From Escherichia coli (lineage in GTDB: Bacteria > Pseudomonadota > Gammaproteobacteria > Enterobacterales > Enterobacteriaceae): a DNA stretch of 40,009 nt. Below are positions 15,238 through 15,446 of this stretch, in pieces (the first letter of the stretch is position 1; the number at the start of each line of letters is the position of its first letter). The translations under genes were made by a program, and so were the position numbers. Location: assembly GCF_003334765.1 (NCBI RefSeq), contig NZ_QOWT01000036.1; one strand, written 5' to 3'. The notes below the pieces were generated by a model that was not told where the DNA came from, searched no databases, and was given only the letters and a program-made list of their open reading frames with translations.

Positions 15238-15304
15238 AAATCAGCTTCCTGTTATTAATAAGGTTAAGGGCGTAATGACAAATTCGACAAAGCGCACAAT
15301 CCGT

Positions 15305-15406
15305 CCCCTCGCCCCTTTGGGGAGAGGGTTAGGGTGAGGGGAACAGCCAGCACTGGTGCGAACATTAACCCTCACCCCAGCCCTCACCCTGGAAGGGAGA
15401 GGGGGC
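15305..15406. repeat. GC-rich imperfect palindromic intergenic repeat (gggagaggg / gggtgaggg / ccctcacc motifs) inside the fepB leader; a second copy lies at about 22731-22816
   Basis: cccctcgcccctttggggagagggttagggtgagggg (15305-15341) is nearly identical to the reverse complement of 22776-22814. Within this copy, gggtgaggg (15332-15340) can pair with ccctcaccc (15369-15377). Family assignment (possibly a boxC-type repeat) is not verified. Confidence 0.45.
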
Positions 15407-15446
15407 AGAACGGCGCAGGACATCACATTGCGCTTATGCGAATCCA

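Follow-up and report, generated by a model that had tools for sequence, protein, structure and literature searches.

Introduction

The closest described relatives of the element analysed here are the members of a short repeated motif of Escherichia coli that was named BoxC in the 1990s and was met again in 2000 under the name PIT (potential intrastrand triplex) element (PMC4666352). Under the name TMECO (triplex motif E. coli), 23 members have been catalogued in K-12, and type A and type B elements form inverted pairs at five K-12 loci, the pair of elements no. 7 and no. 8 among them; type A elements have TTA as their second loop and type B elements a CCG-like loop, and no. 8, with CTG, was classed as type B by the authors (PMC4666352). 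BoxC was also recovered as a known E. coli family in an independent survey, which gives a 50-nt model with 22 copies and quotes literature values of 56 bp and 32 copies (PMC2267715). A published survey of 262 genomes counted 3,610 copies, with none in Salmonella and the most in Enterobacter asburiae (PMC4666352).

In vitro, the G-rich strand of type A and type B oligonucleotides adopts a purine-motif intrastrand triplex, as determined by CD and NMR (PMC4666352). As summarised in the same article, PIT elements had neither promoter nor terminator activity and left RNA polymerase unaffected in vivo, and Holder et al. (2015) report that they did not find a link to mobile elements (PMC4666352).

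Here, we analyse a repeat in the leader of fepB and its relative downstream of cstA, both of which lie in a stretch of 40,009 nucleotides of E. coli DNA (the window). The fepB leader has previously been dissected experimentally. fepB is reported to have an A/U-rich translational enhancer (PMC7769764), and Fur box 1, with the sequence AAAATGAGAAGCATTATT, overlaps the fepB -10/-35 region (PMC5020551).

Results

The locus and its features

The window is the K-12-type enterobactin region of E. coli, and a fixed offset relates it to the reference chromosome, i.e. the NC_000913.3 coordinate equals the window coordinate + 609,273. A 421-bp query around the fepB repeat had 100% identity to many complete E. 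coli genomes, in which fepB and entC are annotated at this place. The features discussed below are listed in Table 1. Elsewhere in the window, Rfam gave gathering-level matches to the rnk leader (34739-34847, minus strand, 124.9 bits), STnc70 (29433-29526, plus strand, 42.7 bits) and ES036/CssrF (865-906, minus strand, 40.5 bits), the last of which terminates where the REP at 905-942 begins.

Table 1. Genes, repeat units and leader elements at the fepB and cstA loci, in window coordinates
Feature	Position	Strand	Sequence and basis
fepB	14281-15237	-	GTG start; comparison with NC_000913.3
Ancestral part of the fepB leader	15238-15264	-	AU-rich stretch and Shine-Dalgarno; present in both alleles and outgroups
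186-bp insertion, imperfect palindrome with both BoxC units, spacer and flank modules	15265-15450		gap alignment
Type A-side flank module	15268-15305		minus strand reads GACGGATTGTGCGCTTTGTCGAATTTGTCAT
BoxC/PIT/TMECO unit no. 7, type A with one mismatch	15306-15341	+	CCCTCGCCCCTTTGGGGAGAGGGTTAGGGTGAGGGG; published pattern match
Spacer between units, hairpin tip	15342-15367		conserved among three K-12 pairs
BoxC/PIT/TMECO unit no. 8, type B	15368-15403	-	CCCTCTCCCTTCCAGGGTGAGGGCTGGGGTGAGGGT; published pattern match on the minus strand
Type B-side flank module	15404-15450		inverted, diverged counterpart of 15268-15305
Fur box 1 of the fepB promoter	15449-15466	-	AAAATGAGAAGCATTATT, mapped from PMC5020551
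entC	from 15612	+	comparison with NC_000913.3
cstA	20621-22726	+	comparison with NC_000913.3
Remains of the last G block of a former partner unit	22732-22744	+	GAGTGAGGGGGGG; RNA fold
Decayed type A BoxC core past cstA	22779-22814	-	CCCTCGCCCCACCGGGGAGAGGGTTAGGGTGAGAGG; inverted repeat with 15288-15341
Type A flank module of the cstA copy	22815-22834		GACTGACCGAGCGCGTTGAT; fits the flank consensus of other pairs
REP unit adjoining the cstA BoxC remnant	22839-22876	+	identical to 905-942
ybdD	from 22909	+	comparison with NC_000913.3

The fepB repeat is a catalogued BoxC/TMECO pair

The preliminary description of this DNA had proposed that the fepB repeat has an inverted second copy downstream of cstA, a claim to be checked by self-alignment of the window, and had guessed at a boxC-like family. 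Self-alignment upheld the first proposal: the inverted similarity of the two regions is significant and makes them the strongest such pair in the 40 kb, with 15288-15341 matching 22779-22832 over 54 nt at 83% complementarity, while the runner-up pairs have 30 nt at 70-77%. Within this match, comparison of the 36-nt core at 15306-15341 with the reverse complement of 22779-22814 shows four differences, i.e. the loop is TTT at fepB and ACC at cstA, and GAGGGG at fepB corresponds to GAGAGG at cstA. Because of these four differences, a search with the core allowing at most 3 mismatches misses the cstA copy and returned the fepB copy alone.

The span 15296-15410 contains two related units in opposite orientations, 15306-15341 on the plus strand and 15368-15403 on the minus strand, 26 nt apart. 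Scanning the window with a regular expression of the published TMECO consensus (5'-CCCTCNCCC-N3-6-GGGNGAGGG-N3-GGGNGAGGG) gave exactly two matches, at 15306-15340 (plus) and 15369-15403 (minus). The guess at the family was also right, since both sequences and genome coordinates of the fepB units are identical to entries in Table 1 of Holder et al. (2015), namely TMECO no. 7 (624,579-624,614, plus strand) and no. 8 (type B, 624,676-624,641, minus strand) (PMC4666352). The second loop is TTA in unit no. 7, as in type A, and CTG in unit no. 8. The four other K-12 pair loci were fetched, and all four are intergenic. In total, we conclude that the fepB feature is a catalogued BoxC/TMECO pair that has already been described.

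Rfam at its gathering score gave no match to a curated covariance model at the fepB and cstA loci. At an E-value threshold, there were sub-threshold matches to eukaryotic microRNA precursors, which we dismissed as generic hairpin similarity, besides a sub-threshold match of the REP at 22839-22876 to the REP-derived family naRNA4.

The short fepB allele is ancestral

A long allele, defined by coverage of at least 80% of the 421-bp query, was found in 2,755 of 5,426 complete E. coli genomes; in the other genomes, judged from rows sampled evenly down the ranking, coverage is 55-57% in two pieces spanning 235 bp. Alignment of the two alleles left one clean 186-bp gap, both with SCU-484 and EC974 as short-allele strains and with the outgroup genera. 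The long allele reads ...ATTAATAAGGT-(TAAGGGCG...CCATCAA)-TAATGCTTCTC, and the short allele reads ...ATTAATGAAGT-TAATGCTTCTC.

The polarity of this difference was assessed with the fepB locus of 80 other species from more than 20 genera. The fepB-entC spacer, 374 bp in K-12, is 187-188 bp in most of these species. In the aligned subset of outgroups (E. albertii, two other Escherichia loci, Citrobacter, Klebsiella, Enterobacter, Leclercia, Kluyvera, Salmonella, Pseudocitrobacter and Intestinirhabdus), no insertion was present at the K-12 site, and the longer spacers have their extra DNA elsewhere. In short-allele E. coli, the site is empty in the same way as in the outgroups. The sole other fetched species with the element at this place is E. 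whittamii, which has a 100-bp remnant in which the flank modules retain ~90% identity and the centre is collapsed to CCCCTCGCCCC-AACCTTC-GAGGGGCG. Moreover, long-allele E. coli and E. whittamii have in common the adjacent variant ATAAGGT, and short-allele E. coli and the outgroups an ATGAAGT-type sequence at this position.

Because the outgroups and short-allele E. coli have the empty 187-188-bp site, the alignments indicate that the short allele is ancestral and that the K-12 state is an insertion. The adjacent variants track the alleles; therefore, the insertion would be an old one that has been kept as two haplotypes or has been moved by recombination, rather than the product of recent repeated insertion or precise excision.

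Two other lineages have insertions of ~125 bp with ERIC/IRU-like character in the fepB-entC spacer: in Klebsiella grimontii (locus L036) the insertion lies between the two promoters, and in Salmonella enterica subsp. arizonae (locus L070) it lies in the entC leader. The likely ERIC identity of both follows from their resemblance to the ERIC primer sequences. The presence of different small palindromic repeats at other positions suggests that this spacer has been struck repeatedly in different lineages.

The pair lies on a composite 186-bp palindrome

The bounds of the insertion are ambiguous, and 15265-15450 and 15268-15453 are equally good placements because TAA is present at both junctions. 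TAA is the one junction repeat that was seen at the fepB insertion, and it may be there by chance. The 186-bp element is an imperfect palindrome almost to its ends; in the RNA fold, the flank at 15404-15450 is base-paired to the left flank, and it is retained in the E. whittamii remnant.

Three K-12 pairs, i.e. those at fepB, ygfF-gcvP and alx-sstT, have more in common than the two units. The spacer is near-identical in the alignment of all three ((T)TAAT-TTCGC-CCAGTGC-GGC(C)TGTTC); also held in common are ~12 nt 5' of the type B unit (GC.C-CGTTTTC) and ~30 nt 3' of the type A unit (GACTG..GAGC.CTTTTG...TTTGTCAT). The type A flank at 15268-15305 is partly common to the cstA copy as well (GACTGACCGAGCGCGTTG). 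Because spacer and flanks are conserved among the three pairs, we conclude from these alignments that the pair most probably propagates, or is inherited, as one composite unit and not as two independent insertions.

The element probably makes up most of the K-12 fepB leader

The fepB promoter escaped a simple sigma-70 scan and was therefore placed by means of the published sequence of Fur box 1 (PMC5020551). This box sits immediately promoter-side of the repeat, and the box as well as a TTGCATC motif 17 nt further upstream are kept in all genera aligned. With GAAAAT as the -10 hexamer, its spacing would put the fepB transcription start at ~15454, which is consistent with the leader of 217 nt that Hook-Barnard and colleagues reportedly described in 2007. 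Given this start, the insertion would span about +5 to +190 of the fepB transcript, and the leader of the short allele would be ~31 nt.

On the gene side, ~14 nt separate the insertion from the Shine-Dalgarno sequence (AGGAAGC at 15244-15250; GTG start at 15235-15237), and the end of the insertion lies just promoter-side of an AU-rich stretch. In the same work by Hook-Barnard and colleagues, the A/U-rich enhancer of fepB is said to lie just 5' of the Shine-Dalgarno sequence, and presumably it corresponds to the AU-rich stretch within 15238-15264. The earlier placement of the repeat inside the fepB leader thus holds, with Fur box 1 on its promoter side and the start codon at 15237 on the other.

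The promoter-distal end of the K-12 Fur box 1 (15449-15453, AATAATGC... on the plus strand) is supplied by the end of the insertion; at this position, short-allele strains and other genera have GTTAATGC... Because the insertion supplies this distal end, the K-12 box is slightly nearer to the Fur consensus than the ancestral box.

Folding of the K-12 leader RNA (15458 down to 15208) gave -99.3 kcal/mol (z = -4.5) and predicts a single long hairpin across the whole insertion, with which the AU-rich and Shine-Dalgarno region is unpaired. The span 15296-15410 as RNA of the fepB strand (115 nt) is predicted to form an imperfect hairpin of -68.6 kcal/mol (z = -5.6), a stability equalled in none of 200 shuffles. 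The leader of the short allele, at -5.9 kcal/mol, is essentially unstructured. The fold of the cstA-ybdD spacer has z = -1.2, which is not distinguishable from shuffles, and contains a GAGTGAGGG...CCCTCTCAC stem, an inner BoxC hairpin and a REP hairpin. Hairpins are thus predicted at both loci, as had been suggested for the two copies beforehand.

The cstA copy is probably the remnant of a pair

The homology of the cstA copy to the fepB copy runs on into the flank at 22815-22834. A single base, in the third block (GGGTGAGAG), keeps the copy out of the strict TMECO pattern, such that mismatches must be allowed to find it; nor is it among the 23 elements listed in PMC4666352. On the far side of the core, GAGTGAGGGGGGG at 22732-22744 pairs with CCCTCTCACCC at 22778-22788 in the RNA fold. 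The REP noted beside this copy in the preliminary description is indeed there, at 22839-22876, and has an identical counterpart in the window. Judging by a near-whole type A unit, a flank and what looks like a relic of the partner, we conclude that the cstA copy is a partly decayed remnant of a BoxC pair.

The cstA-ybdD spacer (22727-22908) was compared in loci L005-L008, L039, L041, L054 and L076. Across many genera it holds outward-facing intact pairs, single units or a collapsed hairpin. Intact pairs in the opposite, outward-facing arrangement occur in Lelliottia, Enterobacter hormaechei, Phytobacter and Pseudocitrobacter; E. whittamii, E. albertii and two other Escherichia loci have a GAGTGAGGGG...CCCCTCAC hairpin alone, and Citrobacter and Klebsiella a simple hairpin of the CCCTCTCC-loop-GGAGAGGG type alone. 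Either this spacer has long been occupied or it has been targeted repeatedly.

BoxC pairs are prone to internal deletion

Losses within the composite were found at three places. In strain 10_253, one 6-bp block is lost within unit no. 7; in E. whittamii, the central 86 bp of the fepB element are lost; and in many E. coli, the alx-sstT pair has a 75-bp deletion between two CCCTCTCCC direct repeats, which leaves a simple hairpin. These deletions agree with the 'palindrome effect' and with the raised variability of TMECO loci, relative to control loci, that is reported for 56 strains (PMC4666352).

Across the alx-sstT loci L087, L089 and L090, the alternatives are this collapse and, in other genomes, an unrelated replacement sequence that is ~290 bp longer, and the ygfF-gcvP pair (L086, L091) is absent together with ygfF in ~44% of genomes, with bglA beside gcvP. 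A second clean filled/empty junction, from which a target-site duplication could be read, was sought at alx-sstT and ygfF-gcvP and was not found at either, where the differences are internal collapse or larger replacement. The composite occurs in unrelated contexts, i.e. downstream of hrpB, downstream of alx and in the ygfF-gcvP spacer.

In Enterobacter and Lelliottia, species differ in what occupies the convergent fepB-entS spacer, which is either a BoxC unit or a REP pair (loci L024, L034, L043, L051, L063 and L066 versus L027, L041, L042, L049 and L050). An empty state of this spacer, which begins just past the fepB stop codon, was not seen in the Enterobacter and Lelliottia loci.

Distribution and mobile-element records

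In loci of ~20 kb, the strict motif is absent from all Citrobacter, Klebsiella/Raoultella, Salmonella and non-coli Escherichia, and it occurs frequently in Enterobacter, Leclercia, Lelliottia and a number of smaller genera. Its absence from Salmonella and its frequency in Enterobacter are consistent with the published survey (PMC4666352).

The element was found in 26 of 72,556 plasmid records, of which the listed full-length and several partial matches are in chromosome-sized records of 1 to 4.9 Mb, and the phage search gave one partial match; carriage by plasmids or phages was dismissed on these counts. The 154,743-bp E. coli plasmid record NZ_CP074792.1 has a single 38-bp BoxC-like match at 1627-1664; it is one of 10 plasmid places among about 35,000 matches in the E. 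coli genome collection. As to the properties expected of a MITE-like element, a filled site opposite an ancestral empty site is present at fepB, and carriage by mobile elements was not seen in the plasmid and phage records.

Discussion

The explanation that we consider probable is that a type A and type B BoxC pair, carried on one 186-bp palindrome, was inserted into the 5' untranslated region of fepB, ~5 nt past the transcription start and ~14 nt upstream of the Shine-Dalgarno sequence. This insertion would be old and polymorphic, being present in about half of E. coli, reduced to a collapsed remnant in E. whittamii and missing from the other relatives that were fetched. In K-12, the element would be transcribed as most of the fepB leader and would form a long hairpin that excludes the ribosome-binding region. 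The pair would be repetitive DNA of a selfish or neutral kind that hardly alters fepB expression, and its main consequence would be local genetic instability, i.e. slippage and collapse deletions between its internal repeats.

We infer both near-neutrality for fepB and the mode of spread. Near-neutrality is suggested because half of E. coli and nearly all relatives are without the element and keep the fepB signals, because the composite occurs in unrelated gene contexts and the predicted hairpin avoids the ribosome-binding region, and because promoter, terminator and polymerase-blocking activities were not found for PIT elements. An influence on mRNA stability or translation, as the preliminary description suggested, is not favoured by these observations; a modest effect of the 5'-proximal hairpin on mRNA decay or translation is conceivable but unlikely. 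The frequency of ~50% and the presence in a sister species could nevertheless reflect selection and not drift.

Two alternatives concern what the repeat is and which state came first. A likeness of the fepB and cstA copies by chance, as between any two GC-rich sequences, has nothing further in its favour than the low complexity of the G/C blocks, and we rule it out: the match of 54 nt at 83% has no competitor longer than 30 nt in the window, 100 shuffles of the core search gave 0 matches, and the 421-bp query that contains the element has a median of 6 match places in an E. coli genome, with a maximum of 13. It is also very hard to maintain that the 374-bp spacer is ancestral and that the short allele arose by deletion of a palindrome. 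Palindromes are deletion-prone, and partial deletions of the element exist; however, the empty site with the same junction is present in E. albertii, Citrobacter, Klebsiella, Enterobacter, Leclercia, Salmonella and others, and short-allele E. coli carry ATGAAGT like the outgroups while the long allele goes with ATAAGGT as in E. whittamii. As the outgroup comparison contradicts it, this order of events was dropped.

Three further proposals concern what the insertion does. That the hairpin is a selected cis-regulatory RNA of fepB, which either shields the mRNA from decay that depends on its 5' end or adjusts translation in concert with the AU-rich enhancer and the GUG start, would fit with its place in the transcribed leader from ~5 nt off the 5' end, its very high predicted stability, an allele that is both common (51%) and old, and the post-transcriptional signals for which the fepB leader is known (cited in PMC7769764). 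We nonetheless regard such a role as unlikely, in that about half of E. coli and all fetched species except E. whittamii do without the element and conserve the promoter, Fur box, AU-rich stretch and Shine-Dalgarno sequence; the composite after hrpB, after alx and in ygfF-gcvP points to a repeat family and not to a device specific to fepB; the predicted hairpin is clear of the ribosome-binding region; and in the published tests PIT elements were without transcriptional activity (PMC4666352). The relevant form may instead be a transient purine-motif intrastrand DNA triplex on single strands in the course of replication or transcription, which would stall polymerases and so cause an instability that is perhaps adaptive. 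TMECO oligonucleotides form stable triplexes in vitro, with melting temperatures of 70-82 C, and the excess variability among the 56 strains (PMC4666352) and the deletions and collapses at three loci here go in the same direction. Against this, the double-stranded form behaves as a duplex and DMS footprinting in vivo showed no triplex (PMC4666352), and deletion end points in short direct repeats (CCCTCTCCC) can be accounted for by slippage or hairpin-promoted deletion; we consider a triplex possible but doubtful, and as compatible with the insertion of a near-neutral, deletion-prone pair, not exclusive of it. Finally, it is conceivable, although improbable in our judgement, that the pair (~183 bp plus a TAA duplication) is a non-autonomous mobile element, that its insertion at +5 predates the split of E. 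coli and E. whittamii, and that the polymorphism persists through fepB mRNA stability or FepB dosage. If this were true, natural E. coli would fall into two classes of ferric-enterobactin uptake regulation.

For the near-neutral insertion that we favour, the outgroup alignments bear on the question left open by Holder et al. (2015), namely whether such elements were inserted or deleted, and for the fepB locus they answer it as an insertion into a 187-188-bp spacer. Added to the published description are thus the polarity of the insertion, the 186-bp unit with its conserved spacer and flanks, and the location at about +5 of the fepB transcript. Moreover, the widely used bidirectional fepB/entC promoter fragment of K-12 and its 217-nt leader are unrepresentative of the species; about half of E. 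coli would have a leader of ~31 nt, which is relevant when post-transcriptional regulation of fepB is extrapolated from K-12 or when the fragment is used as an expression tool. Beyond correct annotation, we attach little significance to the finding.

Among known systems, miniature inverted-repeat elements have terminal inverted repeats plus a target duplication, a signature that could not be clearly made out for the BoxC pair, with the ambiguous TAA as the sole candidate. ERIC/IRU elements are alike in being transcribed imperfect palindromes of 100-200 bp with insertion polymorphism against an ancestral empty site, but have no sequence similarity to the pair. REP/BIME sequences, too, are short GC-rich imperfect palindromes that are intergenic, often in inverted pairs, carried on mRNA and variable between strains; however, they are a sequence family unlike BoxC. 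REPs have a dedicated RAYT transposase family and documented roles in the stabilisation of mRNA 3' ends, and we know of neither a dedicated transposase partner nor an mRNA 3' stabilising role for BoxC. With the BoxC/PIT/TMECO family itself, the fepB pair agrees in being intergenic, in combining a type A and a type B unit in inverted orientation and in its strain-variable presence, and relative to this family we found no difference.
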